A stretch of 64,000 nt of DNA from contig NIVC01000286.1 of the NCBI GenBank assembly GCA_002269645.1, positions 248,001 through 312,000 of the forward strand, read 5' to 3'. The notes below the pieces were generated by a model, which saw only the letters and a program-made list of their open reading frames with translations, was not told the origin of the DNA and ran no database searches. Source of the DNA: Macrostomum lignano (Eukaryota). The position numbers and the translations under genes are program-made. Shown one piece after another: positions 15,601 to 63,989 of this stretch (position 1 is its first letter; each line of letters opens with the position of its first letter).

Positions 15601-17832
15601 CTGGTTGAGCGCCAGCAATATTGAGGGCTACGTCGTATTGCCTAGACGCTGTGGAAAGCAGAGTTTTCCACAATATTATGGCCACATTGATTAGAGAGAG
15701 TTACCTGACAGTGATTTACGATCCATGTGCGCTCACGCAGATGCATAGTACTTTGCCCTATCGATGATAAAATAACCGATAGAAGCTTGATGAGTTAATT
15801 GTTACAGTCGATACGAGCTCAATGCGATTAATAAATCAAATGATTGGATATGTCTTTATTTCTATTTTTACCTTGAAACAATGGCAAATATTTTGGCAAG
15901 TACAAAATCAAATACACGCATGCAGGACTGTGGGAGGTAGCGGCACATCAAAAGGCTATGGGAGGTAGCGGTATATCAAAGGAATGCGTGGGGGTTGCGG
16001 TACATCAAAGGACTGCATAGGAGATAGCGGCGCATCAAAGGACTGCATAGAAGGTAGCGGTAGATCAAAGGACTGCATAGAAGGTAGCGGTAGATCAAAG
16101 GACTGCATAGAAGGTAGCGGTAGATCAAAGGACTGCATATTATGTTGCGGCACATCAAAGGACTCCATAGGAGATAGCGGCACATCAAAGGACTGCATAG
16201 AAGGTAGCGGCACATCAAAGGACTGCATAGGAAATAGCGGTACATCAAAGGACTGCATAGGAGATAGCGGAGCATCAAAGGACTGCATAGGAAATAGTGG
16301 TAAATCAAAGGACTGCATTTTATGTAGCGGCACATCAAAGGACTCCATAGGAGATAACGGCGCATCAAAGGACTGCATAGGAAATAGCGGTACATCAAAG
16401 GACTGACAGTGAGAGCATTGAACCATTTTCAGATCAAAGCAAAAAACTCCTAAACACCTGCAACCCCAACCCGTCTCACAGGTGCTGGGACCACCCAGGT
16501 CGCTGGCCCTGCGGCACGGAGACTTTTGCCTACATCCAAGGCGGCCTGGTGTACCTGGGCGTCTACTTCACCAACACGCTGAACTTCACGCTGCAGACGA
16601 TCTGCTCCTGGCTGACTGTCATTCTTGGACTCGAACGCTACCTGGCTATGAAATATTTCCATTTCAGGCGAACCCGCTGTCACCGCACGGACACCAAGTT
16701 GACTATTGTGATTGTGTGCGTCATCAGTCTGTTATTGAACCTGCCCAACTCGTTCCATTCGCGAATTGTTCTTCGAACTCGTCAGAATCCAATTACCAAT
16801 GCCACCAGAAAGGTGCTCAGCATTGAGCAGACTCAGTTTGGCAGTTCCACAGACTACAGTGTTTACTCGATTTTGAAGCTCGGCTTGTCAGCCATTGTGC
16901 CGTTCATTGTGCTGGCCGTGAACAACACCTTGCTGCTGTACCTGGTGCTCAATCACCAACGAAAAAACTACGCTAACCGTCAGAAGTACCTGTCTGTTAA
17001 GCGCGCCTCCAAGGTGCTTCAAGCTTCGTTGAACAGAATTCAGGCGCAGAAGAACCTGACAATCCTGCTGATTGTCGTCATCTTCGTGTTCCTCCTCGGC
17101 CAGGTGCCCAGGTCGCTGCTGATGAAGGACATCTTCTCCTACATCTACTCGGCCTGTCCGTGCGGCAACACTCTGCTGTGGATCTGCTGCCCGATGTATC
17201 GCCGCCTGCATCCGGTCTGTGAGATCGTCTACCTGCTCTGTCTCAACCTGAACTTCTTCATCTACGTCTCGCTGAACAAGCACTTCCGGTCGCACATCCG
17301 AATGGGCCTGGCGCCCTGTCTGGCGGCCTGCTTCGGCGGCGCTAGCGGTGCAGCGGCCAACGCCAACGTTGCTACTGCTGCTGCCGCTGCCGGCGCCGCC
17401 GCCGCCCCGGGCCGCGTCAACCAAGACATCCAGCTGGACCTATTCTCAGCCGTTGGCGGCACCACCTGCGACTGCAGCCAGCAGGATGTGGACGAAATGA
17501 TGGACGCTTTGAAAGAGACAACCGCGGCGACGCCGATGGCGCACCTGCCGCTGGCGCAGGCGCGCTGCCTGACGCCGCCGAATATCATCTACGAGATCCC
17601 GGCCAATGGCAGCCCGACGGCGCAGCGCCGGCACTCCTGCGTGGCGCTGAGTCAGAAGCTGGCGAACTCGGTGCTGCACAGCATGCTGCACGACTGCCCA
17701 GCCAGCGGCGCGAGCTCCGCCTTGCTCGCCGCCAGCTGCCACCAGGGCAACCGGCCAGACGACGGATTCGGCCCCAGGGAGGAGCTGGACGACCTGTTGG
17801 GCCGCAGGACCGTGATGGTCAGCCAGCTGTGA
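12686..17832 (+). CDS. Class A GPCR, FMRFamide/sex-peptide-receptor-like; 2 exons (12686-13008, 16482-17832), ~557 aa
   Basis: N-glycosylated N-terminus (NLT, NES), TM1 GLCLNSVNF, TM2 ISMVDAL, TM3 LGLERYLAM, TM6 FLLGQVP, TM7 LNFFIYVSLNKHFR. Donor AG|GTGAG at 13009 and acceptor ACAG|G at 16481 are both phase 2; the joined 1674 nt are in frame. Confidence 0.9.
13023..13337. repeat. Intronic 20-bp minisatellite
   Basis: GACCTGTTAGATTGTAGCTT, ~15 copies. Confidence 0.95.
13876..15378. repeat. Intronic 22-bp minisatellite, ~1.5 kb
   Basis: AGATCGATGAGAATCTCAATAG with variant AGATCAATCAGAAT(C/T)TCAATAG. Confidence 0.97.
15930..16404. repeat. Intronic 30-bp minisatellite
   Basis: CATCAAAGGACTGCATAGGAGATAGCGGCG and variants, ~15 copies. 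Confidence 0.95.
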
Positions 17833-29918: not shown

Positions 29919-32255
29919 CTACCAGAAGACGCACTTCCGCTTGGGATTCATTCGCGAACCGACTGGACAGCCGAAAGCGCCAGCAAAGTTCGGCGAATGC
30001 CTCATCATGCCCAACACTCGACGTCGATTCGAACTGTGCGTGGCGAACGAATGACCGAAAAGCATCTTGATGGCCCGGCTGTCGGCCTTGGCGCACCAGG
30101 ACTGCGCGAGCTGCACGAAGAACAGCTGCTCGTTGCTAAGGCTGGCAACGATTCCTGGCAGAGAAGGCACCGATTCAAAATCTCCTCCGGTGGCCAGAAG
30201 CAATCCGCGGTAGGCTGCGGACACGCCGATAATGTCCGATATGTCATTGCTGAGGCTACCCAGGCCGCCGGAATACGAGTCTGGCAGTGTCAGATAGTCG
30301 TCAAAGGCGCATTTCATCCGTTTAAGATAGCCGGTTTCGGTGGCCGAGTCCCAGGTGTGGCCGGAGGCGCCGTCCTTGCTCAGCGTGTGTCCGTAAGCGT
30401 CAAATGCGTGACCGATCTCGTGGCCGGCGATGAAGCCGAGCCCCGCCAAGTTGGCGTACACCGGGTAGCCTGGATGGTACATCGGCGGCTGCAGCAGGGC
30501 CAGCGGGAAGATGACTCGATTCTCGCGGAAGTAGTTATAAGCGTTCACCACTAGGGTGTTGAGTGTGGCGAAGACCGGGGCAGTGAAGTTCCGCGTCAAG
30601 GCTTGCAGAGCCCGAGACTGATAGGAGCAGAGGGCGGCGAAGTAGAGTTTCGCGAAGTCGTTAGAGTCAGCTGGTGAAGCTGCGTGCTTAGCGATGCAGG
30701 GATAGTGCATGCGTTTCACTTCTTCAGGTGAAAGCTCGTCGAAGCCAATTGCTTGTCGCACGGCCAGAATTTTCTCGGCCACCTTAAGACGACTCTGCAG
30801 CGAAATCCAACCACCCGAGGTCTGAGCGGCGCCAGCGGAGGCTGACTTCACCCAGCCAACCAGTCTGTGTACGTGAGAAAAATCGACAGGCAGGTAAGCC
30901 AGCCGGTACATTCGCTCCACTACGGGCTGCAGAAGTCGCCGGCTCAACCGGAGGCACTCGCGAGCTATCGCTGCCCCAACTGGAATTCGTGAAATCAATC
31001 GGTCGTCCTCGGCTATGCCCGCGACAACCGCGCCGCCGCCTTCTTCCTCCTCATCGGGTTTTGCTAACATTGCTGACAACTCGAACGGCAAGAAAACTCG
31101 AAATTTAACGAGCCAATCAAGCACTAGAAGTGCCTGAATGAATGGACGGCGTTCTCTGTTGATTCGAGCGTCTTCCAAAGCTTCGAGGAGCGTACGCGTC
31201 TGTTGAACATTATCCACTACTATGATTGCGTCGTAGTCTAAGCTTGCACCGCTGAGCGACATCAGCTCATCAAAAAAGACTTCCCAATCGAAACTTCCAA
31301 TCGAAGTGTCATCCTTGAGCTCACCGATCCGTCTAGTAATGGACTTGTCCGAGTCGCTTCTGTTTACCAAACCAGGTCCGAACAATGCAGACGCGATTGA
31401 AGACAGTTGTCCAACCGTTTGGTTAGGTTGGAGTGCATCGCTAATGTGCGGGCTCAGTCGCTGGATTAGGTGAGCGAGATGGTCCAGAGCGCTAGAGTGA
31501 ACTCGGCTCCAAATGAGTGTTTCGCTAAGATTGACAATCAGGTGAGCTCGGGTCAAGTCTCTCAGAGGCGAGTTAGGCTGGTGTTCTTTCAACATACTTT
31601 CAACCAATCGATCGGAGATGCTCACGCGAAAGGTACCTCCGACGCCTGTGCTGGCGATTCGAGCAAGCAACCGTTCGGGCCAAAATTTCGTGTCACTGCT
31701 GACACCCGACAAAAGTCTCTCCAGTAAGGAGCTTACGAATGATACGGACAATGACTTTGAGCCCTTTGTCCCTAGATCCACTTTCTGCCACCAGGACTGA
31801 CATTCCTGGTAATAAGACTGGGCAAAACTATGCACCACCTTCAACTTTGAATCGCCTGTAGTTCCATTAAGCTTCGGTATGGTCAATACTTCGTGCAAGC
31901 GGTCCAATACTTCGTAGCGCATAGCCGTCATTGTCTCGACATAGTTGACACCCTGCAGGTTGACTCCGTCCTCCTGAAACTTGTAGTGCACGTGCTGACC
32001 AAAATTACCGCAGGCGTATTCATAGAAATCGTCACATGGATCGACTGACAGATTGATGCTCTTCGACATTGAAGCGCCGAGAGCTACGCATTCAGGCGTC
32101 TGGCAGGTCTGTCTGACTTTTGACAACCCGTTGCAGCGCTGAACAATAACGCCGAGGTACACAGCGGCAGATAAGCAGATTAATAGGAGAATAAAAATTG
32201 CTAGAAGAGCAGCTCTGTATGTCTTCGCCGAGAACGCCATGCAATCAATTGGCAC
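29919..32255 (-). CDS. M13 family zinc metallopeptidase (neprilysin/ECE-like), type II membrane protein, one uninterrupted ORF of ~775 aa
   Basis: N-terminal TM (AALLAIFILLLICLSAAVYLG), CQTPEC, VDPCDDFYEYACG, VNAYNY, FPLALLQPPMY, GHEIGH (HExxH), THSS..RV and C-terminal CPVGSRMNPKRKCVFW. First ATG at 32240; the track start at 32255 is GTG. Confidence 0.93.
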   Translation of the reverse strand: MPIDCMAFSAKTYRAALLAIFILLLICLSAAVYLGVIVQRCNGLSKVRQTCQTPECVALGASMSKSINLSVDPCDDFYEYACGNFGQHVHYKFQEDGVNLQGVNYVETMTAMRYEVLDRLHEVLTIPKLNGTTGDSKLKVVHSFAQSYYQECQSWWQKVDLGTKGSKSLSVSFVSSLLERLLSGVSSDTKFWPERLLARIASTGVGGTFRVSISDRLVESMLKEHQPNSPLRDLTRAHLIVNLSETLIWSRVHSSALDHLAHLIQRLSPHISDALQPNQTVGQLSSIASALFGPGLVNRSDSDKSITRRIGELKDDTSIGSFDWEVFFDELMSLSGASLDYDAIIVVDNVQQTRTLLEALEDARINRERRPFIQALLVLDWLVKFRVFLPFELSAMLAKPDEEEEGGGAVVAGIAEDDRLISRIPVGAAIARECLRLSRRLLQPVVERMYRLAYLPVDFSHVHRLVGWVKSASAGAAQTSGGWISLQSRLKVAEKILAVRQAIGFDELSPEEVKRMHYPCIAKHAASPADSNDFAKLYFAALCSYQSRALQALTRNFTAPVFATLNTLVVNAYNYFRENRVIFPLALLQPPMYHPGYPVYANLAGLGFIAGHEIGHAFDAYGHTLSKDGASGHTWDSATETGYLKRMKCAFDDYLTLPDSYSGGLGSLSNDISDIIGVSAAYRGLLLATGGDFESVPSLPGIVASLSNEQLFFVQLAQSWCAKADSRAIKMLFGHSFATHSSNRRRVLGMMRHSPNFAGAFGCPVGSRMNPKRKCVFW

Positions 32256-35200
32256 TTTTACTATTCAGGTATAGACAGCTGCTTGGGCTTGTTTTACCAC
32301 CAGTCAAAGTAGCTAATGAGAAAAGCTGATGGTCAGTTGCACCGAAACCCAACGCTTTAGGGCCTGGACGGAATCGCAGGCCATGGCGGCATCGAGTTAG
32401 GTAAAGTCTTACCGTTGCCCCCGCGTACGATGCCGTGCAGTTCTATGCAGGCAACAGCAAGCTTTCGGGGTGGCCACAACAGCAGCCGTTCTTTGAACGC
32501 CAAAACCAACCCACCCTGCACCACCCGCCGAGTAGAATCCGAGGATGTAACTTCTTCCCAACTGGCTGCTGGCTCTCCAATAGCCATCGCCATCGACTAA
32601 CTATACAAGCTTGTGACGTGGCTAAGTCAGAAGTTATCGAAGCGTTTTGATAGCCAGCGAGTGCCAGCACATGCACATGTACAAATTCTGTATGATAAAG
32701 GTGAATGAGGTCTGAAAGCCGAAAATAATGCATTCCTGTTATCATTCATTGTTATAGTACAAAAGTCCCCTAAAAGTGGCGTTTAAACAATCAGCCCCAA
32801 TGATCCCGACTAGAATCAAAATGCAATGTTCTAGAACAAATCATCAGTTCGAAAAAATAGCTGAAATTTTGGATCGATCGATTAGCAAAAAAGTTCTAGA
32901 AGCAAAGAACCACACCACGCGTAGAAAATTTATTTTCCCATCAAATTTTCTCTTACTAAAAGGGACCTTCACAGGGCTGCACCTTCTTGACAAGACTTAA
33001 AGAGGGGCATTTAGGCATGGCTTTCAATTTGATAATGGAATGCTTTTAGTTAGTAGCTTTTGAGGCACAGGACGGACCAATTCTTTGTCTTGGAGAGCAG
33101 GTCGTGCTGCTGATCCAAAGCCCCTAGCGGAATGACTGATGTCTCCTGGGAAATTCTCGGCTGGGGATGACGTCTCAGCTGAGGGAAGCGACCATCTCCG
33201 GAGAAGGAATGCAGGATTATATTCAAAATCCGACGCCCGGTTGTGTACACAAAGGCGGCACGCTTACGCTGTAAGCAGCTGCATAGATGAGGTAACCCGA
33301 TACAAAAAGGCTGAAAGAGGCCGGCCCCCGTGAACGAGAAAAAAATTATGCTATATAGCTATCGAATATGACGAACAAAGACCGCAAATTGTACCCCAAA
33401 TCAATCGAAGGGAGTTTTTCATCCCATGCGGGGGAGCGACTGTTTGCAGATGTCTTCCCTGAAAGCTGCCTGTCTGTCTGTCTCCTATGCCCCTAATGCC
33501 TCGAGACATGTAGTCGTCGCTTAGTGGGGTTTTTTTCTTGCTTCAGACTGAAGGATTGTTGAGAACGAATGGAGTAGACTATAAAGGGGAGCTGGTAAAA
33601 AAGCTGTGTAATTTGCATTTTTATCCTTCGTGACAACTGCAAACAAGTATGGGCTGTTGCAGCTCAATGCTTAGCTGAGCAGTTCCGACAAAGACAGAGC
33701 CATGCAGATCAGCTCAAACTCAAGCCAGTACCCACATAATCTCAGACGGCAGGTCTCATTGCAAGGGTTTTATGTGGGCTGTATAATTAACATATAAGCT
33801 TATGCAGCACTGATCAGAGTGAGTGCACTTACAGTGTAAAATAAAAACCAATTTGAGTAAAAATTCCGCTCAGGGAAGACAAAGACTTGGGGACAGGAGC
33901 CGGGCAAATGCTTATTTTTACGCTCTCTTGCACATTGCAAATCCCCTTTTTAACCCCGCGAATCCCAATCCTAGTGCAAGTCAAGTGGCGCATACGCAGC
34001 AGTTCTTTATTCGTTTAAACCCATAGTCACTGTGTTAACAGCTGCAGTAGATCATGCCTGGATGATGTCTCTTCTGACTGCAGGCTGCATCAGCAGCAGG
34101 TGGTATCCCCTCTTTATCGCACCTTTCTTTTTCCTTTGCATAAATCGTAGTCCACGCGGTTCAATTCTAAACTTATAAATTCTTTCACAAATAAAACAAA
34201 ATCCTGCGCGATTTGAAGCCCCTATATTCTCCATGACTCAGTAAGCTTAGATTGACACTACTCTGTAATAATGTATGATACACCTGCGCAATGTTTGCAT
34301 GCAGCAATTGAGGGAAGAAATTTGTATAGGAATCTAATATAATAATCCTTCTGCTATGCCTGTGTATAGTAAAAGCCAAAGTGGAAACGAATTGCTTTTT
34401 ATGTTGCGTAACAAGGCAAATAGAAATGGAATGGAAGGTTTTAACTATCTAAATATACTAAATACAGGATATTACAGCTGCTTCGTAACAAATGCCAATG
34501 ATATGGAAAGAAAGACCGAGGGATATTGATTACAGGCTTCGTGGTGGGTTGGTTTGAAGGTGCGCGAGCAAGGTGGTAGAGGTGCAGATTACCATGCAGG
34601 GCATGATAAATTAAAGGCATAATTTTATAATTCCATGCGCGAGAAACGGTGGCTCTATAACTCGTATAGCTTTTCTTTTGCTTTGGGAAAACTTTTAAGG
34701 CAGCTTAATACTCACCAAATTTTGTAATGAGTTGCATTGATTACGTAATCAGTAGCGGTCATTTCGGGCTGCACTGTGATGTGTGATGACACGAATACGA
34801 GTATATAAAGGTGATGAATAGCTTGCACGGAGGGATGAGAAGCTAGAAATATAGTCATAGCTTGCCACTCTCAATATTGAGTGAAGAGAGCAGAGAGATG
34901 AGAGATAACAAATTAGAGGGGAGAGAGATAAGAGATTAGAGATGAGAGATGAGAGGGGGGAGAAGAGAACTGGAGGATACTAAAATAAAGCAATATTACA
35001 GATGGCTAATGCAGAAATGCTGACATCTAAATGCAAGACAACAAACAGTAACAGAACAAAGTCCGCTAGTCTTGAATGAGTGAGAGCTGTAGACTAAAAA
35101 TACTCGTACTAATAGCTAGTTATGAAAAAAGCGTCCCATTTCGAGACCCACAAATATCCACATGAACGAACTCAAGCTTCAGTTTTAAAAAAATGTATGA

Positions 35201-52132: not shown

Positions 52133-52686
52133 TGCCAGCGGCTATCTGGCGTCTGCAGATCAACACCCAGCACTGCGTGGCGGCGTCAGTCAACCTGATG
52201 CGCACGACAGAGCAACAGCTTCCGGGCCTGTTTTTCGTGCAGGAGCCCTGGATGACTAAAGGTAAGCCAAATAATGTGCCATCTGACTACCACTGTTTTT
52301 GCATGGCGGACTCTCAGCCTCACCCAAGATCTCTGATCTTTGCTGCTAAAGCTTTTGAGGCATGAATGAGACCTGATCTCTCGACCTCTGTGATTTATTT
52401 GGACATCTGTGTTGTTCAAAAAAAAAATCAATAACCTCCTTCCCAATAAACCTGTACTGGCAGCATCTTCCTATTTCCAAGGCGATGCCCCAGTAGTTTG
52501 CGACGCGCTAGTTAACCTTATTGACTACGCCGCGTCCCGTCCGTTCGAACTGCTCATTTCAGGGGATGTGAACGCGCACCACCTCCATTGGGGCAGCAAG
52601 AACACCAACAACAGAGGCGAGGAGCTGCTGGCCTATGTCAGCAGCACTAACCTCAACTTCTGTAACGTGGGCAATGCACCAACGTT
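52132..52686 (+). pseudogene. LINE ORF2 APE endonuclease, N-terminal part
   Basis: QINTQH, VQEPW and GDVNAHH motifs; disrupted at ~52365-52410; interrupted at 52686 and resumes at ~61790. Confidence 0.85.
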
Positions 52687-52748
52687 AGTAGTAGGTGCGA
52701 GCCATTGATTTGCTATAGAGCGCCCACCCCATTTTTCCGGCCCCGCCG

Positions 52749-55600
52749 ATGTCGAGCAGGACGTGCCGATTGCCCGCACCCCGCAGCTGCTTAGAAGAGA
52801 TTCGGAATTTTGAAGATTGGTGGAAGTCGCAATTAGCAGCCTGCGAAAGGACTTGTGAGTCCATGAACACGAACGGCAGTGGTTGGACCATAGGTGGAAT
52901 CAACTTCTTTGATGTCTGCATTTCCCGTGGCGATCGCGTGCGCTACTATGTTGGTAGAAGCAGCAGCTTTGTACTTCCCGAAGGTCTTAAGCAGAAGCAG
53001 GCCGTAATCAACCCACCGAGTGAAGGTGAAAATTGGTTTCTGTATGCCTGTCTAGCAGTGCTGCATCATGGAGAGGAAAGTTTGCGAAAATCTCCGCACG
53101 CGCTTGCAACCTACCGGCCTTGGCTTCACGAAATTTGCTTGAATGGCATAACCATGCCAGTGAGTATCTATGCTTTAGACGAGATTGAGAACTTGAACCC
53201 TGACTTCTGCTTCACAGTGCTTTCCTGGCGTGCTGGTAAAGTGGAAGTTTTGCGTCAACCAGAAGCAGCCATCACAGTAGGGCGCCGCCTTCTGCCATTG
53301 CTTCACCTCATTGACGACGACTCTGGCAGCTCTCACTGGTGTGCGATTGTAAACATGAATAGTCTACTCAACAGCAAAGATGGACTTCACCAGCGCAAGT
53401 GGTGCGAGCGCTGTCTATCCGCTTTCAGGTCAGAGGAGAGACTGCAAGAGCACCGGCAGAGCTGCTACGAGTCAGACGAGCTTTCCGTCAAAGAAGTATT
53501 ACCAACGGAGGAAAACAACTGCTTGACTTCCAAAACTGGCAGAAAACTATTTCACCGCCGTTTACAGTCTACGCTGATATGGAGTCATTCAATGCTGATG
53601 TTGATGATGAAGTCCGCGGAGCCGCTGCCGGAACCAAAAAGCTTTCCCAGCATCTTCCAGCTGCAGTCGGCTACCTGCTAGTACAAAGCGAAAATACTGC
53701 AGGCCCTGATCTCAAAGGCAGGAATGAAAGCCTCCAATTGTTCAGAGAAGACGATCCAGAACTGTGTGTCGAACAATTCCTTAGATCCCTTGAGACGCTT
53801 TCAAAGGAAATCTTTCAATGGAACCGAGAACACAGCTACCAAAAGAAGATTGTCAATGAAGAAGCTAACCGAAAGTTCGAAACAGCTCAGAGTTGCTACT
53901 ACTGTGACGAATCTTTTTCGTGTCCGTCCGAAAAACTGTGGGATCACAATCATCTGACTGGGCTTTTCCGCGGTGCTGCGTGTGCTGCATGCAACCTCAA
54001 GGCTCAGTTGAAGCGACGCTTTTTGCCAGTGTACTTCCACAACCTCAAATCCTACGACCTACATCTGATTTTTTCGACGGCTTTGTTCAAGATGACACAC
54101 TGGAAGTTGAGCGTGATTCCCCAGACCAGTGAACGGTACCTTTGCTTGAAGGCGGAATTTCCAGTTGGTGAGTACACCTTACCGTTCGGCAAGAAGCGTC
54201 CGCTCAATTTTACCGTCCAATTTTTAGACTCACTCAATTTTCTGGGTTGTAGTCTTGAAACTTTGATGCGCACTTTAACGGCTGAAAGTTGCCCTCTTAC
54301 GCTGGAGATGAAGGTGCACCATCCGAAACTTTCTAATGCTATTCTGCTAAGTAAGGGGATTTTTCCCTACGACGCTGTGAAGAAACCTGCCGATTTGCTT
54401 GTTACGAGTCTGCCGTCGCAAGAGAACTTTTTCAACGTGCTCACGCAATCGCCTTGTCCTGATGCAGACTATCAGCATGCACTGCGAGCGTGGCATGAAT
54501 TGCAGGTCAGTAACCTTGGACAGTACATGATGGCCTACCTAGAATTAGACATCCGCCAATTGGCAGATGCATTCGAATCATTCAGGAGATTGAGTCTTGC
54601 TGACGACGGCTTGGATCCGGTGCACTTTATCACGGCACCAGAATTGTCATTCGAATCGGCACTTAAGTGTGCGAAACATCGCTTGGAGCTTCTAGTCGAT
54701 GGTGACATGTACCGCATGGTGGAGGCTGGCATCCGAGGAGGAATTACTTTCACCAATGTACACCAGGTCTCCGCGAGCGGTGGAGATGAAGAGGAAGAGG
54801 AACACAGATACTTACTTCCGCTAGATGTCAACAACCTATATGGTCAGGCTCTCTCTATGCCGCTACCCGTGAGTGAATTTCGATGGGTCGATCAAGACGA
54901 GCTGCGAAGTTGGGATGAAAGCACTGTTCTCAATATGCAAGATGATGGTGCCCATGCCTATCTCATGGAAGTCGATCTGCAATATACAGAATGCATTCAC
55001 CAGAAGACCGAGGAGCTGCCACTGGCCCCAGAGAAGGGAACTATTGAGTTTGAAGACTTTCCAGCCTATATGCAGCAGCTATGGCATCAGCTAAATCCAG
55101 GTAAAAAGTACCACGGAACGCGAAAACTGCTTCTCACTTGTCAAGACAAAGAAGCCTATGTTGTTCATAGCAGAGTGCTCAAGTTCTACCTTCAACAAGG
55201 CATGCGCGTAAGCAAGTTCCGGCGAGCCATCAGCTTTCGATAAGAGCGAGTGTTCAAGAGCTACATCGATAGCAACAGCGAAAAGCGTTCAAAAGCATCT
55301 ACAGAAATCGAAAAGAACTACTACAAGACCAAGAACAATAGTCTTTTTGGAAAGACTATGGAGAACGTTCGGAAGAGGAGAGATGTGAGAATCTGTAACA
55401 GTGATCATCAAGCTCAAGTTCTGGCTTCAAAGCCTAACGTCAAGACATTCAGCATCATCAAAGAAAACTTGAGCATCTTTGAGCTAAGCAAGACATCCGT
55501 TCGCCTCGACCGGCGAACATCGGCCAATGTGTTCTGGACGATTCAAAGCTTGTTATGTACACACTTTTCAACACTAAACTGAAGTCCTGGTTCGCGTCAA
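52749..55600 (+). pseudogene. polB: Protein-primed family B DNA polymerase (pPolB), Polinton-type, C-terminally truncated
   Basis: GSGW, KQAVINP, ExoI VYADMES, DHNHLTGLFRGAACAACN, ExoII FHNLKSYDLH, FLDS, KGIFPYD, ExoIII YLELDIRQLAD, motif A DVNNLYG and motif B KTKNNSLFGKTMEN. Frameshifts at ~53520 and ~55510 and an in-frame TAA at 55241; ends before YxDTDS. Confidence 0.92.
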
Positions 55601-55619
55601 CTCGCCGTGCTGCCAAGAT

Positions 55620-56027
55620 TCAACTATTCAACTCTTTTCCCTTGAAAAATATATTCTGAGTCAGCATCACCAAAAAGCACGGCAAGTGATGTGCGATTCC
55701 TGTGAAAAAATTTCGCATTGAAGCAGAATTTGAAGTTTCCTCTATTAAGTCATCGAAAACAACCAGGTCATTGGGCCTAAGTGCTGCCTCGATGTTGGTT
55801 GGAAATCCCTGGCGCAGCTGCACACCTAGGCTGCTCAGTTCTGCATGGCCTGCCTGTGAGATCCCATAGTACCACAGAACTCTGCCAGGCTTCACATTAA
55901 ACATGGCGTCTCTGTACTGGATCAGGTGTTTGACAAAGTTTGTTTTTCCTGCATTGGTGGGCCCGCAGACAATCATGCAGCTTCCCTGCCTGAGGCGGAT
56001 ATCGTAGCAAACTCGCTTTTCGGCCAT
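55620..56027 (-). pseudogene. A32-like (FtsK-HerA) genome-packaging ATPase, C-terminally truncated
   Basis: Walker A CGPTNAGKT, VLWYYG, Walker B LVVFDDL and FTGIAHHL..LTQNIFFKG, matching Polinton ATPases. Confidence 0.9.
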
Positions 56028-56056
56028 GTCTAATGCATAAATATAGTTCTAGAAAA

Positions 56057-56565
56057 TCACGGACATCTTTTTCTTAAGTTGGCTTCAAACCTCTGTAAGA
56101 TTCTATCATTCAAATATTTTTTTTCAACATCGTGAAAACTCTTCAAAATCCCCTCAAATGACCGATTAAACAGAAACTTTTGATAAGCAAAATAGATGCA
56201 AAACACTCCGCATTTATTTGAGTTGGCACATTGAATTCTGTTTATATTGCTTCGGAGCGAAAAGCCAGTTGTTTTAATCTCTCGAAACAAATTATTAACC
56301 ACAAATAAAATTTCAGGTTCCCAGCCGAGGGAGTTGAGCTTCTCAATGCAATTTCCTTGCCTAACATAGCACACCACCCAGTGACTAAATGAGCCATTGT
56401 GCTGTATTAGAACAAAAACAAACTTGCTTTCAAGGGAAATTGATGATCGAAATTTTCTTTTTACATTCAAGGGCAGATAATTTTTATAGCGCAAATGAAA
56501 GTAATTATGAGAAATTTTTGGCCAGGCAAATTTTTTTGGCGAGATTGAATAGTTGAATTGCGTCC
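56057..56565 (-). pseudogene. Adenain-like (C5) maturation cysteine protease
   Basis: GSFSHWV (catalytic His), NSLG, and IQCANSNKCGVFCIYF (oxyanion Gln, catalytic Cys); N-terminus frameshifted. Confidence 0.85.
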
Positions 56566-56572
56566 GTGCCAG

Positions 56573-57852
56573 TTAAGAGGAATAGTCCAGCAAAAGCTCC
56601 CGGTGCTTGGTGACTTCAAGCAGTGAGTCATACAGGCACATAGCAATCAGGGACACCGCTTCATTCAGTGCCTGTTGGAAGCGAATCTCCAGCCGCAAGT
56701 TGCCCTCCTTCTGTCCGTACCACAGAGCCGCTCCCTCTGGTGTGAGATCGAATGCAAACACCGTGGTGTTGTTGGAGAAGAGCTAGTAGGGGATCCACGG
56801 GACCAAATTTGTGAGGCTTGCAGATTGACAGCTTTTCAGATAGTGCAAGTATTCTCTTACAAAGGAATTGTTTTCAGGTGTAAAGGCGCCGTGGCACACG
56901 GTTTATCCACCTTTCTTTAGAGCCAACCGGCTGAGGTTGAAGCTCTGGAACTGGAACGGACTCGCGTGATGATGACCGTTGAATGCTCAGTGGCTCACGA
57001 AGGCCAGCATGATGAACTTCGGCAATTTTCCATGAGTGAATCCTTCAATGTTTTTTGACTGGATACCCTGGGGTAAGATGAAGTTCTGCATTTCAGTTCG
57101 CTCGATGGGATATAGTGCATTTTGGTTTGTCAATCCCTGCTCATGGCCAGGCTGATGTGAGGCACCACTTTGACTTGGCGAAGTTGCAAAATGCAGTGAG
57201 AGATTCCATTCGGTATGCCGCGTTGTTTGCATTCGGGGTTCTGATGGCAAAGGCCCCATCGCTGGGGACCAGTTTGATGTGCAAGTGCAGATTGCTTAGC
57301 AGAAACACTGGGCACTGGAAAACATCACTGAAGAGCGGCCCCGCATACTCCATCCATCGGGATTCCCTGTGGCTCTCCGTGTGCTCTTCAGCTGCCGAGT
57401 CCGGCTCCAGGAAGCCAGCAGGGTAAAGTTTTAGTTGCTGGGCATCGGATGAGCTGATTAGAGCTTTGAAGTACGCATGGTAGGGATAGAGCTGGTCTCC
57501 ACCAGACACCACTCGCTGGTTAATGCTCACAATTACATCTGAGAAGGCTGTAGACAGAACAAAATTTTCTGGGTGCACATCAGTTTCTGCGCTCGGTGAT
57601 GATGCCATCTCCGTCTCGAACATCCTGCCTCAGCAAACCCCCATCCAGTCTCACAAGGCGGCAGCGAATATAAAGAAAAGAATTAAGCAGATCAGTGTAT
57701 TCATCGGCGGATTGGTGGCAGTCAAATTCAATGGGAGAATTTGCAGCAATGGAATTAACTGGGTGAATATCAACATAAGTAGCTTTTTCAATGCAGGTTT
57801 GTAGAACGGGCGTCTTAAGTACATCAAGTCGGGGATTGAATCCGTAAGCCAT
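56573..57852 (-). pseudogene. Double-jelly-roll major capsid protein, Polinton-type
   Basis: LDVLKTPVLQTCIE..PIEFD..DEYTDL, PENFVLSTAFSDV..YPYHAYF, LRQVKV, ALYPIER..GKLPKFIM..AFNG..SPFQF and FAFDLTP..GNLRLEIRF..LEVTKHRELLLDY. At least 3 frameshifts and 3 in-frame stops. Confidence 0.9.
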
Positions 57853-57854
57853 GT

Positions 57855-58232
57855 CTATGACAGAGAGTCGAGCACGCGTTTCACAGTTTTCTTGCTGACT
57901 TTTCGCTTTCGCTTTCCTCCGCCTGCTGCATTCTTCTTTGTTTTTGTCTTCCTATTCTTAAGCTTTTTCCCACTAGCCTTGCTCGACCTCTTATTGCGAT
58001 TTCCACCAGTTGCCTTTCGGGTGCGCTTCTTCTTCTTCAATCGTTTCGGACTTGCTTCAGTGTTTCTTTTGCGCCTGACGCTGCTAAGCGTCGAGGGTGA
58101 TGATGATGATGTAGCCGCTGGCGGAGGCTGGTATGTCATGATCCCTGGGAAGCTCCCACAGCCATAGAGTGCAGGCTTTTCGTGTCCTGTCCAAACCCCC
58201 GAATATTGCTGGATCAGCTGCTGGTAGTTCAT
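57855..58232 (-). CDS. Small Lys/Arg-rich protein, candidate virion core/DNA-condensing protein (~125 aa)
   Basis: Open ORF MNYQQLIQQYSG..LYGCG..KKKKRTRK..GGGKRKRK between penton and MCP. Its ATG overlaps the penton stop (ATGA) and its stop lies 2 nt before the MCP ATG. Confidence 0.6.
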   Translation of the reverse strand: MNYQQLIQQYSGVWTGHEKPALYGCGSFPGIMTYQPPPAATSSSSPSTLSSVRRKRNTEASPKRLKKKKRTRKATGGNRNKRSSKASGKKLKNRKTKTKKNAAGGGKRKRKVSKKTVKRVLDSLS

Positions 58233-58495
58233 TGAATGCGTTTCTCCCGAATCTGAACTGTGAGCAGAACAGGGCTGTGAGTCTGTGCAATCAGTGGGCA
58301 ACCATAGATGTCACGGAGCTGAACTCGAATGCTGTGAAGAAGACTGATTCGTTGAATCGGGAAGAATATTGTTTTCTTAAATATTTTTGACAGGTAGTTG
58401 CCCCATTCAATGCCGGCTTTCATTCCAACTGTTCTCAACAAGGAGCTCCAGTTGCAATTAGTTGACTCACAGCCTGGTTTCCAAATCCCAGCCAA
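58229..58495 (-). pseudogene. Minor capsid (penton) protein, C-terminal fragment
   Basis: LLRTV..FFPI..SIRVQLRDIYG..VLLTVQIR resembles the Polinton penton C-terminus; upstream part cut by the Gypsy insertion. Confidence 0.65.
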
Positions 58496-58571
58496 TGCAG
58501 AATTTTACTAGATGGAAGAAACAGCTCTGCTCTCGCAAGGACTCAAACCGGAGTCAAGGTAAGCAGTACCT

Positions 58572-58783
58572 TGTCGCGGCCAGACTGGTGCACGGTTGAG
58601 AGCGGGCCCGCCTGTGTACAGGCCCCTGCACGCCTGGCTGCTGGGGAGTTTTGCCCAGCCAGCCAGTTCGCTCTGACTCACACCTCCCTATTCTCTCAAG
58701 TATAAAGACTATGCTTAAACAAATATACACAATAGCTTTTGCTCGCTTGCTGCTTTTCAAGCTTCCACTCGCAAGCCGCTTCA
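58572..58783 (+). repeat. Probable 5' LTR (~212 bp)
   Basis: Begins TGTCGCGG and ends TTCA; contains TATAAA; immediately followed by a TGG primer-binding site. No second copy to confirm the boundaries. Confidence 0.65.
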
Positions 58784-58784
58784 T

Positions 58785-58798
58785 TGGTGAGCCCTACG
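58785..58798 (+). promoter_or_regulatory. tRNA primer-binding site of the Gypsy element
   Basis: TGGTGAGCCCTACG, 1 nt after the LTR-terminal CA and just upstream of gag. Confidence 0.6.
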
Positions 58799-61199
58799 CA
58801 GCCATTTCGTGCAATGGCCCAACAAACCGGACTCTGCTGTGTCCCTGAAGCTGCCCACGTTTTGGGCGGCCCAGCCTCGAGCCTGGTTAATCCAGGCCGA
58901 AGCTCAGTTTACCCTGAGAGGCATCACTCAGGACGAGACCAAGTACGCCCATCTGGTCGCAGCTCTTGACCAGCAGACAGCAGAGCGCCTGCTCGATGTG
59001 CTCGAGGCTCCTCCGGAGGCGAACAAGTACGCTCAGCTAAAGGAGCGCCTCAACAGCACTTTCGATTTGACTCCTCAGCAGCGGGCCAGTCGCCTGCTCA
59101 GCATGTCCGGCCTCGGCGACCGGCGGCCTTCCGAGCTGATGGACGAGATGCTCGCCCTGCTGGGGAACCACCGCCCCTGCCTGCTGTTCGAGGAGCTGTT
59201 CCGCCAGCAGCTGCCACCGGAAGTACGCATGGCCATGACAACCGTCAGTTTCGCGGACCCCTGGGCAGCAGCGCAGGAGGCAGACAAGCTCTGGGCCAGC
59301 TGGCCGCAGCTGGTGGCGGCCTCCGTCCAGCAGCCGGCGGTAGAGCCGGCCCAGCAAGCCCAGCCGGCAGTCTTTGCGGCTAGCAAGGGCGCCAGACAGA
59401 GACGGCCCAGCAGCACCGCCCGGACGACGGCCTGTGTTTCTTTCACCGTCGTTTCGGTGCGAAGGCCCGCCGCTGTGAACTCCCGTGCAGCTTCCAGGGA
59501 AACGGGCAGGCCGGCCGTCAGTGAACAGCTCGACGGCCGGCAACAGCAGCAGCCTGCTCCTCATCCCAGATGTGCAGACGGGCCGGCGTTTCCTGGTCGA
59601 CACCGGCGCCGAGGTCAGCATTTTCCCCGTCGCCGGTTCCGACGCCCGCCTGCACTCGCCAGGCCCGCCGCTTTTTGCAGCCAACGGCAGCCTCATCCGA
59701 ACCTTCGGCACCCGCCAGCTCACGTTGGACCTCGGCATCCGGCGCTGCTCCTGGCCGTTCCTTCTGGCCGAGGTCTCCCGCCCGCTGATCGGCGCCGACT
59801 TTCTGCGGCACCACGGCCTGCTGGCCTGCTGGTGGACCTGCCGCACCGGCGCCTCCTGGACGCCCGCTCGCTCGCCAGCGTGCACCTGCTGGACGGCGCG
59901 GGGCCCGGACTGCAACTCGCCGCAGCCGCCGCTGCGGACCCGTACAGCCAGCTGTTGGCCGAGTTCCCCGCTCTCACCGAGCCCAGTTTCCAGCGGGCTG
60001 AGCCACGACACGGGGTGGAGCACCACATCCCGACGCAGGGTCCGCCGGTCCATGCCCGCCCTCGCCGCCTGCCGCCGGACAAGCTGGCGTTGGCCAAGGA
60101 GGAGTTCCGGCTTCTGGAGCAGCTCGGCATCGTTCGCCGCCGGTCCAACAGCCCTTGGTCCTCGCCGTTGCATATGGTCCCAAAAGCCTCCGGTGGCTGG
60201 CGGCCCTGCGGCGATTTCAGGCGGCTAAACGACGCCACAGTGCCCGACCGCTACCCGGTGCCGCACATCCAGGACTTCTCAGTGCGCCTAGCCGGCTGCT
60301 CGGTTTTCTCCAAGATCGACCTGGTTCGTGGCTACCACCAGGTGCCCGTGGCCGCAGCCGACGTGCCCAAGACCGCCGTCACCACCCCGTTTGGCCTCTT
60401 CCGAGTTCCTGCGAATGCCATTCGGTCTCAAGAACGCCGCCCAGGCCTTCCAGCGGTTGGTGGACTCCGTCTGCCAAGACCTGGACTTTGTCTTCGCCTA
60501 CATCGACGACTTCCTGGTCGCTAGCAACAGCCCGCAAGAGCACCTGGAGCACCTGCGGACGCTTTTCCAGCGCCTGACGGACAACGGCCTTATCGTCAAC
60601 CCGGCCAAGTGCGAGTTCGGCCGCAGCAAGATCGACTTCCTCGGCCACCGGATCAGCGCCCAGGGAGCCGTGCCGCTGCCCGCCAAAGTCGACGCCATCG
60701 CCAGATTCGCACCGCCAGCCACCGTCAAGGGCCTGCAGGAGTTCGCCGGCATGGTGAATTTCTACCACCGCTTCGTGCCGCGCGCCGCCCAGCTGCTGCG
60801 CCCCATCCATGCGGCCATGGCCGGCAAGGAGAAGTTCGTCCGGTGGACGCCCGAGCTGACCGCCGCTTTCGACGGAGCGAAGCGGGCGCTTGCCTCCGCC
60901 GCCATGCTGGCACATCCGCGGCCAGACGCGCCCATTGCCCTCACCGTCGACGCCTCCGATACCGCGGTCGGGGCAGCGCTCGAGCAGCGGGTTGGCAGCG
61001 CCTGGCAGCCGCTCGCCTTCTTCAGCCGGCAGCTGTGCCCGTCCGAGCAGAAGTACAGCGCGTTCGACCGCGAGCTGCTCGCCCTGTACCTGGCGGTCCG
61101 GCACTTCCGCTATTTCCTGGAGGGCCGCGCGTTCACCGCTTTCACGGACCACAAGCCGATGGTCGCCGCCATGTCCAAGATGTAAAGGCCAAATGATGC

Positions 61200-61448
61200 C
61201 GCCCTTCACTTCCATAAACTTATCAAAGCCGAGTTTCACGACCTTGGGCTCGTTGTTGCGTGCGGCAATCACGAGTGAGCGTTTCACCTACTTCAATTTC
61301 TCCCATTGGTAAACATTCAGGTTGAATCCTGGGACGCCTGGCTTCAGACTTGCCGTGCTGCCGTGTCGGTAAAACTTGTGAATAGCGATAAATTTTTGTC
61401 CTTCAAACTCCTGGACTTGAGCCTTATAGCTCCTTCACAGATGTCCAT
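61200..61448 (-). pseudogene. PC4 (p15/Sub1)-like ssDNA-binding protein, probably a Polinton gene
   Basis: YKAQVQEFEGQKFIAIHKFY..LKPGVPGFNLNVYQWEKLK fits the PC4 pattern V.EF.G...I.IR.YY..KPG.KGISL...QW..L. The ATG at 61448 is out of frame by 1 nt; TAG at 61290-61288. Confidence 0.7.
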
Positions 61449-61630
61449 TTTCCTTTCGAAATTTAAAACTCACGAAAATTAAAAGTTAAGGAAAATACTT
61501 TTTCTTGCCAATTTTGGGGCTTATATACCCTCGACCGAACCTCCCCAAACCACCCACCCCACTCCGGGCTCTGTGATTGGCTCTTTCCCAAACATATTTC
61601 AAATACAGAGATTAACATTCATTCAGCTAA

Positions 61631-61794
61631 GCCGCCCATCTTATCTCTGCAGTGTTGAACATCCCAGTGCAGAGAGATAGGCTGCCTCTCCTCTTATCTC
61701 TGCAGTGTTAACCACCCCAGTGCAGAGAGATAGGCCGCCTCTCCTCCTATCTCTGCAGTGTTAACCACCCAAATGTAAAGAGATAGGCCGCCTC
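61631..61794. repeat. Three 50-53-bp tandem units, each with internal inverted arms
   Basis: Units start at 61631, 61681 and 61734; each has TATCTCTGCA..loop..(TGCAG)AGAGATAG. Confidence 0.85.
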
Positions 61795-63989
61795 ACCCAG
61801 ACTTCTGTCCACAGTTACGGGCTGGCGAGTGCGGGACGAGGACTCGCTCTCGGACTACCGTTTTATCCGCTTTTGCATTGGGCCGACCAAGCAAAAGCCT
61901 AAGGTCACTTGGAGTCGGAACGTCGGGAATACCGATTGGGCCGCCTTTGGCTCGAAGCTGAGCCACGGCCTTCGAGATCTTGACTTCCCCAGTGACCTCT
62001 GACTGCCGGGTTGTGGATGATCTCGCCTCCTCCCTGGGCGGGGCGATCACCACTGCCTATGAGGCAGCCTGCCCTCTAAAGGCCTACAAAGGCAAGAAAT
62101 CTGCTCCTTGGTGGAACCCACAGCTCGGGGTCCTTCGGCGCCGAGCCAGGACCCTCCAAAGGCGAGCGCCCAAAACCAAAGACCCATCTGATAGAGAGAC
62201 CTATACCCGTGCGATCCACGAGTTTAAGGGCCAAGTCAAAAGGGCCAAGACGGCCAAATAGCGCCAATATTGCGAAGGGCTTGAGGGTTCTCGCCCGGTA
62301 GCCCATGTGGTTAAGGCACTCACGAACGACCGTTTTTCTAAACTCTCTGTTGTGAAGAGACCTGATAGCTTGGTCACAGAGAGCTCTGAAGAGACTCTAG
62401 AGCTCATGCTCAAAAGTTTCTTCCCCAAATCTCCGACTCAGCAGTTCCGCTGCCTGGGCCTCACTCTAACTGGACTCCGCACATTCAAACTAAAGCTAAA
62501 AAAGCCCTGGCTCAGATCAGGCCCGCCTTGGGCACCACCTGGGGACTCACCCCCAGGAAGCTGTGGTGGATTTACACAATTACACTGCCATTATCCGCCC
62601 CTCGATCAGACGTTACGCCAGCCTCGTGTGGGCCAGCGGTCTGAGCGTCAAGAGCTAGCAACCTCGACGCTCCTACAAAATCCAGGGCAGGGCCTGCCGC
62701 ATGACTATGGGCGCCCCACCCTCTACTCCCTTTGCCTTCCTCTGGATATTTATGTCAAAGGAGAGGCGGCGAAGAGCACCCGGCGTCTTTTGGATGCTGG
62801 GGTGGCCTTCAAGAAAGTGCGGGCCTTTAAGAAGCGGTCGCTTATCCCGCACTCTGACCTCTGCCTCAAGGCTCTCGAGGAGTTTGGCGGGCTCAACATT
62901 CTCACGGACTCGATCCCAGCCACCCTTCTTCAAAAGTATAAGGTCACTATTCAGCCTCGACACGAGGCGAGTAACAGCTGGAGCGATTCTGAAGTCCACT
63001 GTTACACTGACGGCTCTATGAGGCATGGTCTCTCAGGCTTCGGAGCTGCGCCTTCTTCAAGGGAGAAGCGGTGTGGAGCTACTCCCAGCACACTGGGCTC
63101 AACTCCAGTGTATTTCAGAGCGAGGTGCTTGCTATCAGCTCCTGCGCGGCAGAGCTGCGCCGAAGGCAGCTCAGCGGTCGGAAATTTATTTTTCACTCTG
63201 AAAGCCAAGCAGCCCTTCGGGCCCTCCGCCGCAGCACCACCAGCTCCAAATCTGTCCTGGACTGCAACACCCAGCTCAACGGGCTGGCGCTAGGCAACCA
63301 GGTGGAGCTCAGATGGATCCTGGGCCACGCTGGTTTCCTCGGCCACGAGCGCGCTGACCTGCTGGCTCCGCCGGCGCGCTGCTGGGGCCGGGCCCGGGGG
63401 CCCCCATCCGCCTCAGTGATCAACTCCCGCGTTAAGCGCTGGACTGATTCCGAGCATCTCCGCAGGTGGCGCGACACCTGGAATTGCAGGCAATCCCGTG
63501 CGGCCGTCCCCTTCCCCTCTCCTCTCCTGCGTAGAGCCCTCCTCAGGCTCAACCGCAGATCCCTCAGAGCAGTCAGCATGGCCCTCTCCGGGCATGGCTG
63601 CTTCTCTCGCCACAGCTTCATTCAGGGCCAAGTACCCGAGGAGCGGTGCCCCTTCTGCCGCTCAGGCAGTGAAAACGCCGAGCACTTTATCTGCCACTGC
63701 CCCTGCCCGGTTTTCACCAGGGCCAGGCTCACTTACCTCGGGCCAAACCCGGTTCTTTCCGAGAGCATCCCGCCGCTCGCCCGGTACCTCAGGGACACGG
63801 GACGAGCTGATCTCTTCCCCACCGCCGGTGAGGAGGACCGCGCTGCAGGCGAGACCGACGGGTCCCCCTGAGCGACATCGCTTCGTCGGAAGCCATTGGT
63901 CGCCAGGGGCTAGCGAAATGGGCGGTCTCCTCCGCCTCCTCGCTGCATCCGCCGGACGCCGCCTGCAGCTAAGTCAAGTAAGTCAAACA
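61790..63989 (+). mobile_element. LOA/R1-type LINE, 3' half (endonuclease end, linker, RT thumb remnant, RNase H, C-terminal CCHC, tail)
   Basis: ASPRLLSTVTGWRVRDEDSLSDYRFIRF (endonuclease end), APWWN linker, TWGLTP..WIYT..IIRPS..YASLVW, RNase H YTDGS..VFQSEVLAI..SQAAL..WILGH..ERADLLA, CPFC..EHFICHC, and a TAAGTCAAG-type tail. RT catalytic core missing. Confidence 0.88.

Follow-up and report, generated by a model that had tools for sequence, protein, structure and literature searches.

The question raised by this locus is whether a Polinton-like virion module in the window (the whole stretch of 64,000 nucleotides of Macrostomum lignano DNA that was analysed, contig NIVC01000286.1) belongs to a novel viral system, as a sequence-only reading had proposed. 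The element at 52687..61793 is a Polinton/Maverick copy, and this identity was supported. The copy itself is a dead relic without special value, and on sequence grounds we lean towards reading it as a deleted member of a module-shuffling Polinton family with its own TBP, which would likely read the motif YTTAAGAA for the capsid and packaging genes. Animal Polintons have no RNA polymerase of their own, which raises the questions of how the timing of their capsid genes is set and whether a helper virus is needed. An element-borne TBP paired with its own box would, if true, settle these questions for this lineage and offer a concrete sequence for testing. Stable transgenesis has been described for M. 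lignano (PMC8717057).

Structure of the window copy

The element lies within a LINE (non-LTR retrotransposon), the endonuclease region of which forms the left host part (52201..52686, plus strand; Exo_endo_phos_2, E 1e-10); this part is 89-90% identical to all nine of nine uninterrupted LINE copies, and the match stops at 52686. Exactly at the LINE breakpoint are 9 nt (52687..52695, plus strand) identical to those that open the terminal inverted repeats (TIRs) of types A, B, C and G, and the left boundary given by the sequence-only reading was therefore correct. That AGTAGTAGG at 52687 merely mimics a terminus was ruled out, as these bases are not part of the LTR, which begins at 52696. There follow scraps of a first Gypsy element (52696..52785, plus strand), in which an LTR start is joined to a 3' piece of pol with a 9-nt overlap, and which are 93-98% identical to a 243-bp LTR and to the pol of a 4.75-kb LTR element.

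The plus-strand pPolB was confirmed by Pfam (DNA_pol_B_2, E 1.6e-10; Endonuclease_7, E 8.6e-7). It is a protein-primed PolB of type A (52783..55627), 97.9% identical in nucleotides to copy C754, with both ends deleted and its sequence spread over three frames with one in-frame stop. It carries vOTU, exonuclease, HNH/EndoVII-like and polymerase motifs; PF03175 and the Exo and Pol motifs are present in both the window PolB and its sisters. At the junction 55627/55631, judged by size against C754, 3.35 kb comprising TBP, the DEDD-like gene, ORF230 and ORF112 is gone.

The predicted minus-strand order of penton, basic protein, major capsid protein (MCP), protease and ATPase was borne out, as was its tight packing: the penton stop overlaps the core start, and 2 nt separate the core stop from the MCP start. 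The genes are a putative packaging ATPase lacking its C-terminus (55631..56027; Walker A/B), a candidate adenain-like maturation protease that has lost its start codon in this copy (56057..56567), a double-jelly-roll MCP broken over three frames (56573..57852; 95% amino acid identity to sister MCPs), an open frame for a basic core-like protein (57855..58232) and the C-terminal part of a putative penton, from the inside of which another 82 bp are missing (58229..58537). YTTAAGAA, the candidate late-promoter motif, occurs on the same strand ahead of the ATPase (56071..56078), 110 nt ahead of the MCP (57955..57962) and 149 nt ahead of the core gene (58374..58381).

A short unassigned stretch (58538-58571) separates the penton remnant from a second Gypsy element (58572..61185, plus strand), which comprises a 5' LTR (58572-58783), gag, protease, RT and RNase H (Pfam RVT_1 and RT_RNaseH) and ends before its own integrase; at other sites this LTR occurs in pairs 4.1 kb apart. 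Frames at 58511-58793 were rejected as a penton N-terminus, the DNA there being mostly LTR. The N-terminal part of a PC4-like gene, absent from the sequence-only reading, lies at 61188..61446 (minus strand; PC4, E 5.5e-8 on a sister copy). This stub, also given as 61188-61428, is of the type C/C84 kind (93% amino acid identity to C1860 versus 79% to C754) and differs from the PC4 that accompanies PolB-A at C754. On the right, 53-bp repeats from inside the terminal repeat (61625..61797; TRF), also found inside the 669-bp TIR of C754, are what is left of the end, since the terminal CTACTACT and the right target duplication are deleted. The LINE then resumes (61789..62400, plus strand) with a 9-nt overlap and the loss of 39 bp of LINE.

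Of its ends, the copy retains only 9 nt on the left and inner repeats on the right, most of both terminal repeats being deleted along with the integrase and four middle genes. Within the 9.1-kb span, the two Gypsy fragments account for ~2.7 kb. What survives is PolB, ATPase, protease, double-jelly-roll capsid, basic core, half of the penton and a PC4 stub. The description of the virion module as "near-complete" was not confirmed: about 100 of 272 penton codons remain, all C-terminal, the ATPase has no C-terminus, and the 3.35-kb block and the integrase are missing. Almost certainly, the element integrated into the LINE, received two Gypsy insertions and lost segments by short-overlap deletions, and it is no longer self-mobile. 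The unusual features of the family (its own TBP, the late motif, module shuffling) reside mostly in genes that the window copy has lost.

Virion proteins and fuller relatives

The fold of the capsid protein was checked on a sister MCP 95% identical to that of the window. A Pfam search of it returned no match; its AlphaFold2 model (pLDDT 85.6) is a double jelly roll, and Foldseek aligned it with the capsid proteins of PBCV-1 (E 9e-15), mavirus (6e-14) and Sputnik (7e-14). The remaining labels are weaker. For the adenain protease, the Gln/Cys motif is present in nine of nine copies and the His was read off the translation, but Peptidase_C5 was matched at E 0.0023 with 18.1 bits, below the 21.3 cut-off; Asn replaces the usual acidic residue in the five copies displayed, and there was no match to PDB sequences. 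Walker A and B motifs in nine of nine copies support the packaging ATPase, but the Pox_A32 match on a sister copy is weak (E 0.025). The penton remains putative, its label resting on position and size, given that sister copies gave no profile match and the fold, predicted from four close sequences, had a pLDDT of 34. The basic core-like protein of a sister copy has 35 K+R in 125 aa. An NCBIfam search found nothing specific; in the Atlas, the DEDD-like ORF matched unnamed clusters (0.95-0.96) and Maelstrom (0.88, a lead only), and there was no usable match for ORF112.

Fuller relatives exist, as had been anticipated: 37 of 41 matches span most of the capsid block at 94-100% identity, and the MCP frame is uninterrupted in 12 of 30 fetched loci. 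As to the proposed undescribed lineage, its novelty is modest but real, the MCPs closest to it from outside having 79%, 57% and 40% identity. Polintons have already been reported in rhabditophoran flatworms (10.1101/2025.04.19.649669), and a Polinton with a virion module is thus not a novel system in itself. We found no paper on the Polintons of M. lignano, although Repbase, subscription papers and supplements may cover the family.

Sister copies measure ~16-17.5 kb, with ends AGTAGTAG and 6-bp target duplications, and encode an integrase, deleted from the window copy, with an rve domain (E 3.2e-13) and D-D-E motifs. In the 11 copies with both ends, the TIRs start with AG and are 134-669 bp long. 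Their target duplications are exact in six of the 11, have one mismatch in one and are unmatched in four, which indicates that ectopic chromosomal recombination or mis-assembly also occurs. One element (C3189/C2301) consists of two right arms placed head to head with a 5-nt overlap, derived from templates 29 substitutions apart, and has the identical 6 bp outside both ends.

Exchange of PolB and other modules

Eight PolB types were distinguished, with 43-72% amino acid identity and pS of at least 0.78 between types (synonymous sites saturated). Six of these are found on capsid block I, in which the MCPs are 94-98% identical in amino acids with pS of 0.04-0.16, and two on block II. Selection alone was ruled out as the cause of capsid conservation, as synonymous sites are also near-identical. 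Types A and B, each present at more than one locus and with matching 6-bp target duplications, differ in PolB only (56% identity, versus 96-98% in the flanks). A second family (Z) repeats the swap, with a module 98.6-99% identical and a PolB N-terminal region at pS 0.80. A terminal-protein-only ORF of family Z was considered as a selected satellite gene and set aside, the constraint not being clear (pN/pS ~0.5-0.9, few changes).

It is likely, from these patterns, that modules reassort between co-replicating genomes. Protein priming would drive the replication of excised linear genomes, and modules would, in our judgement probably, be exchanged between them by template switching or crossing over before re-integration. 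Homing, in which a heterologous element would be cleaved by the HNH/EndoVII-like domain of PolB and would then acquire the PolB gene through gene conversion, would account for the A/B exchange borders falling just outside PolB and for the HNH-like motif C-x2-C...DHxH...C-x2-C-N being retained in all eight of eight PolB types. It is weakened, however, by family Z, which swaps too although its full-length PolB has no HNH/EndoVII-like motif, and by the extension of exchange to integrase, PC4, ORF1 and DEDD blocks, and we consider it improbable. The mosaics are still less likely to reflect mis-assembly or ectopic recombination among integrated repeats. Many copies do lie at contig ends, some target duplications are unmatched, as noted above, and short-read contigs conflict with the assembly at some single-base indels; but no combination is confined to one site, each being found at several loci and flanked by a matched duplication of its own, breakpoints fall repeatedly at module borders, and the junction from PolB-C into TBP is bridged by independent short-read contigs of two runs (X13 and X7).

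Module exchange has precedents, and PolB swapping is already published. Like the Alpha-PolB adintoviruses (Starrett et al. 2021, PMC8502044), the elements have an OTU-PF03175 PolB, an rve integrase with chromodomain, a candidate adenain-like protease, a putative packaging ATPase, a double-jelly-roll capsid, terminal repeats and 6-bp duplications; the same study inferred transfer of virion modules between PolB lineages, and in its accessible text TBP is named once, in a figure legend, with no promoter motif seen. The Alpha adintovirus/pPolB2 combination of OTU-PF03175 with HNH was found here by domains (PF03175 plus PF02945). In nematode Polintons (Jeong et al., 10.1101/2023.08.22.554363), a single species likewise shows a PolB swap between elements that are similar elsewhere, and pPolB2 has an HNH domain as types A-H do. 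The nematode polymerases, however, are two ancient classes with 16% identity, whereas the types here form one clade in a FastTree tree that combines seven of our types with 30 of the 120 relatives listed (the broken frames of type F and of the window copy kept both out), and, unlike pPolB1 and pPolB2, are shuffled together with integrase, PC4, ORF1 and ends. In mosaic Polisuviricotina, reassociation of replication and morphogenic modules was described as common, with tandem integration and deletion as a proposed route (Barth, Ha and Aylward, 10.64898/2026.10.13.758929). That work spans virus groups, whereas here a single genome captures the exchange, dated by synonymous sites and accompanied by matched duplications; six polymerases on one capsid thus represent datable within-genome module exchange of a kind that others infer from deep trees. 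The terms TATA, TBP and PC4 have no matches in the main text of either preprint.

The element-encoded TBP

The protein encoded between PolB and the capsid block of sister copies has a TBP fold (Pfam E 7.9e-25, two repeats). The comparison of TBPs and motifs was confined to the M. lignano genome, in which the element protein is 26-28% identical to host TBP; both the main family and family Z carry a divergent TBP, and the nearest named relative (99%) is itself annotated in M. lignano. It is 187-198 aa long, keeps YEPE in seven of seven aligned sequences, and has a pN/pS of ~0.15-0.25 in its N-half, where overlap with the DEDD-like frame could add to the constraint. Both C-repeat phenylalanines are kept, but the proline following the first, which favours T at TATA position 1 (PMC12529657), is lost. 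The N-repeat phenylalanines are replaced (by Pro/Trp and by Tyr), and DNA binding may therefore be altered or lost.

The motif YTTAAGAA, first spotted by eye in the main family, precedes 7 of 10 late-block starts in type A, 7 of 10 in C, 6 of 10 in D and 7 of 10 in H, whereas among random windows the share is 13-14% (P 8e-5 to 7e-4), types A-F not being independent for these counts because the capsid block is common to them. It was also found in five of six unalignable non-coding stretches before the integrase, where chance predicts 1-2% each. Its 5' side is variable, and most sites lie within A-rich coding sequence. TAAGA, a core chosen beforehand, was found ahead of six of eight starts in the distant family Z, at matching genes (P 4.6e-4); one Z copy with full PolB (C291) has no TAAGA ahead of TBP. 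The core common to both families is (A/G/T)TAAG, and the two genes without the motif, the protease and ORF230 in the main family, are the same ones in both. In family Y, whose genes are not firmly annotated, TAAGA is scattered only and the partly fetched DNA contained no TBP. Canonical TATA boxes precede PC4 in eight of eight copies and ORF1 in five of eight, against a 2.5% background. A splice acceptor was excluded by the purine-rich upstream DNA, and a poly(A) signal by the location of the motif before the upstream stop.

The elements thus combine a TBP-fold protein with a non-canonical box before putative late genes, as a co-occurrence. By analogy with beta/gamma-herpesviruses, there is about an even chance that host TBP serves the early genes and element TBP the late ones. 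Transcription of ORF1, PC4 and the DEDD-like gene would begin with host TBP at TATA boxes of the ordinary kind. Since the TBP gene is itself behind the motif, a bootstrap is needed, and the first element TBP would probably be made by read-through from the DEDD promoter. Element TBP would then occupy the variant box and, by way of the acidic stirrup that it has kept, bring in host TFIIB and Pol II for transcription of integrase, penton, core, MCP, ATPase, ORF112 and TBP itself, a step to which we give roughly equal odds either way.

Two other explanations were weighed. The first, which we regard as unlikely though the more serious of the two, is an ordinary Polinton with a passenger TBP, in which the motif would be a weak variant of TATA or another site for host factors, and the TBP a decoy for host TFIIB or TBP regulators. 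TAAG is indeed common to the motif and to TATA boxes (TATATAAG upstream of DEDD and of several PC4 genes), the protein has altered N-repeat intercalating residues with a retained TFIIB stirrup, and a hand count gave ~110 element TBP loci versus six host TBP/TRF loci. Conversely, the 5' side, on which the motif differs from TATA, is the one for which the element TBP no longer has the T1-selecting proline. The motif is also limited to late-block genes, and its placement is kept in the two families that have a TBP but not in Y. The second explanation is helper-dependent late transcription, in which a large DNA virus that co-infects the host would supply the RNA polymerase and TAAG would be the initiator for it, much as virophages use the promoters of their helpers. 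Baculovirus-like late promoters use TAAG, and the shared core would fit; but the conserved TBP in both families and the extra conserved bases (YT...AA) would be left unexplained, we know of no helper virus for M. lignano, and we consider this explanation improbable. Among public runs, 20 of the 24 listed rows contain the stretch, none recorded as RNA. On locus L047, near-even cover with no splice joint was seen for three runs marked "RNA?" and for one marked "DNA?", and X1 alone among them stops in the PolB-TBP gap.

Comparison with herpesvirus late transcription

Transcription of late genes by the element's own TBP would resemble that of the beta/gamma-herpesviruses, in which viral TBPs (BcRF1, ORF24, UL87) act at TATT late promoters (PMC4893493, PMC12529657). 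Shared features are the lack of an own RNA polymerase, a TBP-fold protein, a non-canonical late box and TATA at early genes; some of the sites here read TATTTAAG. We tentatively suggest, as a possibility somewhat short of even, that the lineage reached this herpesvirus-like solution independently, with its own TBP and a private YTTAAGAA box, and lives as a co-replicating linear swarm that trades polymerase, capsid, integrase and end modules and yields integrating polymerase-less and head-to-head derivatives. We found no paper on a TBP with a late box in animal Polintons; subscription papers, Repbase and bioRxiv supplements may hold Polinton TBPs. The herpesvirus system is at most a functional analogue, with no shared membership implied: its TBPs are large proteins that have lost the acidic residues, traits that the element TBP does not have, and no counterpart of the six-protein viral initiation complex is evident here. 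The element TBP is instead free-standing, ~190 aa long, with two repeats and the acidic TFIIB stirrup that ORF24 lacks.

Structure and decay of the window copy

The window copy of the Polinton is nested in a LINE, which halts at 52686 and restarts at 61789 with 39 bp missing. Its first 9 nt (from 52687) are the true Polinton end, followed by scraps of one Gypsy element (52696-52785) and then, as judged by reading frames and Pfam matches, by a type B polymerase (PolB) with an EndoVII/HNH-like domain on the + strand (52783-55627) and by the ATPase, protease, capsid, basic protein and partial penton on the - strand (55631-58537). A second Gypsy element (LTR 58572-58783, gag-pol reaching 61185) precedes a PC4 stub and 53-bp repeats that end at 61797. 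The overlapping and 2-nt gene spacings that the sequence-only reading had described on the - strand were observed again.

Relative to fuller copies, the window copy has no left arm, integrase or right end; PolB lacks its ends, half the penton is gone, and 3.35 kb of genes have been lost from the middle. PolB and the major capsid protein (MCP) are split over several frames, four junctions carry 3-9-nt overlaps, and three sites of the candidate late-promoter motif YTTAAGAA remain. The copy is a hybrid of a type A PolB and a type C PC4, a pairing that could reflect either recombination or nesting with deletion. A 99.9% duplicate of the locus (contig C4289:42486-51609, stretches L058-L059) has lost a further 1.25 kb (window 61457-62701), which indicates continued deletion. 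Host genes in the window comprise two rhodopsin-family 7TM receptor frames (1266-2105 and 16381-17829, +) and an M13 peptidase (29922-32264, -), with numerous minisatellites around them.

Copies, ends and gene order of the family

The element is a Polinton of known kind, and flatworm Polintons have already been reported (10.1101/2025.04.19.649669, in the portion available). A literature search found no description of this family; the closest outside MCPs are at most 79% identical to the query, and outside PolBs at most 49%. The capsid block had at least 41 matches in the genome, 37 almost full length, among the best 40 of 161 candidates scored, and the 5' part of the window PolB matched just four places among the best 40 of 100 scored. 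Since host TBP and a TRF-like gene (L101-L112) each have three equal-scoring intronless loci, a single locus may be present as many as three times in the assembly, and counts of elements should be divided to match.

Full-length copies span 15.9-17.5 kb, begin AGTAGTAG and finish CTACTACT. Both ends are present in 11 copies, including three shorter ones; six of the 11 have exact 6-bp target duplications and four unmatched ones. ORF1 and PolB lie on the + strand, followed on the - strand by TBP, DEDD-like, ORF230, ORF112, ATPase, protease, MCP, core, penton, integrase and PC4, where DEDD-like, core and penton are putative labels based on motifs and position. The MCP has a predicted double jelly-roll fold. 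ORF1 types share 18-55% identity; type A (L031:806-1780 and homologues) has long low-complexity repeats and a Cys-rich N-terminus with a weak, below-cut-off match to FAM76 (E 5e-5).

An element-encoded TBP and a candidate late box

The element TBP (190 aa, two TBP repeats) shares 26-28% identity with the host protein and is under purifying selection. The acidic stirrup and C-repeat phenylalanines are kept, the following proline is lost, and the N-repeat is altered yet almost invariant. Its best database relative (99%) is labelled Macrostomum lignano, and only 5 of 1046 library matches reached E 1e-30. A profile scan of the genome, with the best 150 of 330 candidates scored, gave at least six host loci and, by hand count, at least about 110 others; Polinton genes adjoined TBP in all ten newly inspected non-host loci.

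When the 130 nt ahead of every start were read, TATA boxes were found for PC4 (8/8), ORF1 (5/8) and DEDD (5/9). YTTAAGAA lies 34-149 nt ahead of integrase, penton, core, MCP, ATPase, ORF112 and TBP. It precedes 6-7 of 10 starts versus 13-14% of windows, and all seven sites are on the coding strand. It also occurs in five of six unalignable non-coding integrase leaders (chance 1-2% each). In a second family, Z, with proteins 25-57% identical to those of the main family, the core TAAGA stands at six of eight starts at similar distances, and the same two genes are without it. No comparable TAAGA pattern was seen in the fetched part of a third family, Y, where TBP was not detected.

We propose that early genes would be opened by host TBP, after which the element TBP would take over at the variant box and recruit host Pol II. 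This is the most likely working and would resemble that of beta/gamma-herpesvirus TBP mimics at TATT boxes (PMC4893493 and PMC12529657, as far as their available text goes). Against it, the TBP gene lies behind its own box, and the box is absent ahead of two late genes, protease and ORF230; TAAG may instead be read by a helper virus or a host factor. TBP in a small dsDNA element has a single mention, in a figure legend, in the accessible part of Starrett et al. (PMC8502044), and our literature search found no animal-Polinton TBP with a matching late box. A regulatory variant combining element TBP and candidate late box appears to be undescribed.

Exchange of modules

Across 15 copies, the eight PolB types are pairwise saturated at synonymous sites (pS 0.78-0.95, 43-72% aa identity; one broken copy lower). 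Six carry a common ATPase-to-penton block (MCP pS 0.04-0.16) and two a second block (MCP pS 0.07 within, about 0.6 between blocks). Integrase, PC4 and ORF1 follow distributions of their own, as does the DEDD-ORF230 pair. Types A and B differ solely in PolB, with 96-98% identity on either side. Identity rises inside the TBP 3' half and falls some 50-100 nt inside the 3' end of the integrase. Seven PolB types and two unnamed relatives form one clade (SH 100), which indicates diversification within one lineage, and the swap is repeated in family Z, whose PolB is without HNH. Assembly artefact is opposed by the recurrence of hybrids at several loci with matched duplications and by one hybrid junction bridged by short-read contigs; the four unmatched duplications favour some artefact or ectopic exchange.

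PolB exchange has been published, as available portions of Jeong et al. (10.1101/2023.08.22.554363), Starrett et al. (PMC8502044) and Barth et al. (10.64898/2026.10.13.758929) state. Protein-primed replication of a linear genome, integrase-driven integration and a double jelly-roll virion are established for the group (in part, PMC11161782). Several genome types replicating within one nucleus would swap modules. Hybrids would integrate as units, as would head-to-head joins and derivatives that have no polymerase.

Families Z and Y and head-to-head elements

Family Z, the second TBP-bearing family, has its own TIR and the late gene order of the main family. In six copies (C460, C494, C738, C1131, C1769, C2126; L127-L128, L138-L147), with mostly matched target duplications, PolB is reduced to a 187-194-aa ORF resembling its N-terminal region; C494, the copy checked for this, has an additional out-of-frame PolB scrap. 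Copies C254, C291 and C110 (L158-L162, L165-L166) have a long PolB without the HNH motif.

Head-to-head elements at C3189:41270-55822 and C2301:56054-70947 (L087-L090) are made of a pair of right arms whose templates differed slightly. An identical 6 bp lies beyond each end, a match that could be chance because the flanks are satellite. C592 (L163-L164) has a comparable inverted structure in family Z.

Family Y (C860, C274, C326, C1190, C1499, C897; L123, L148-L157) accounted for all 117 scored integrase matches. In the fetched part, which contained no TBP, integrase, PolB and protease lie on a single strand, and module versions differ to the right of the protease.
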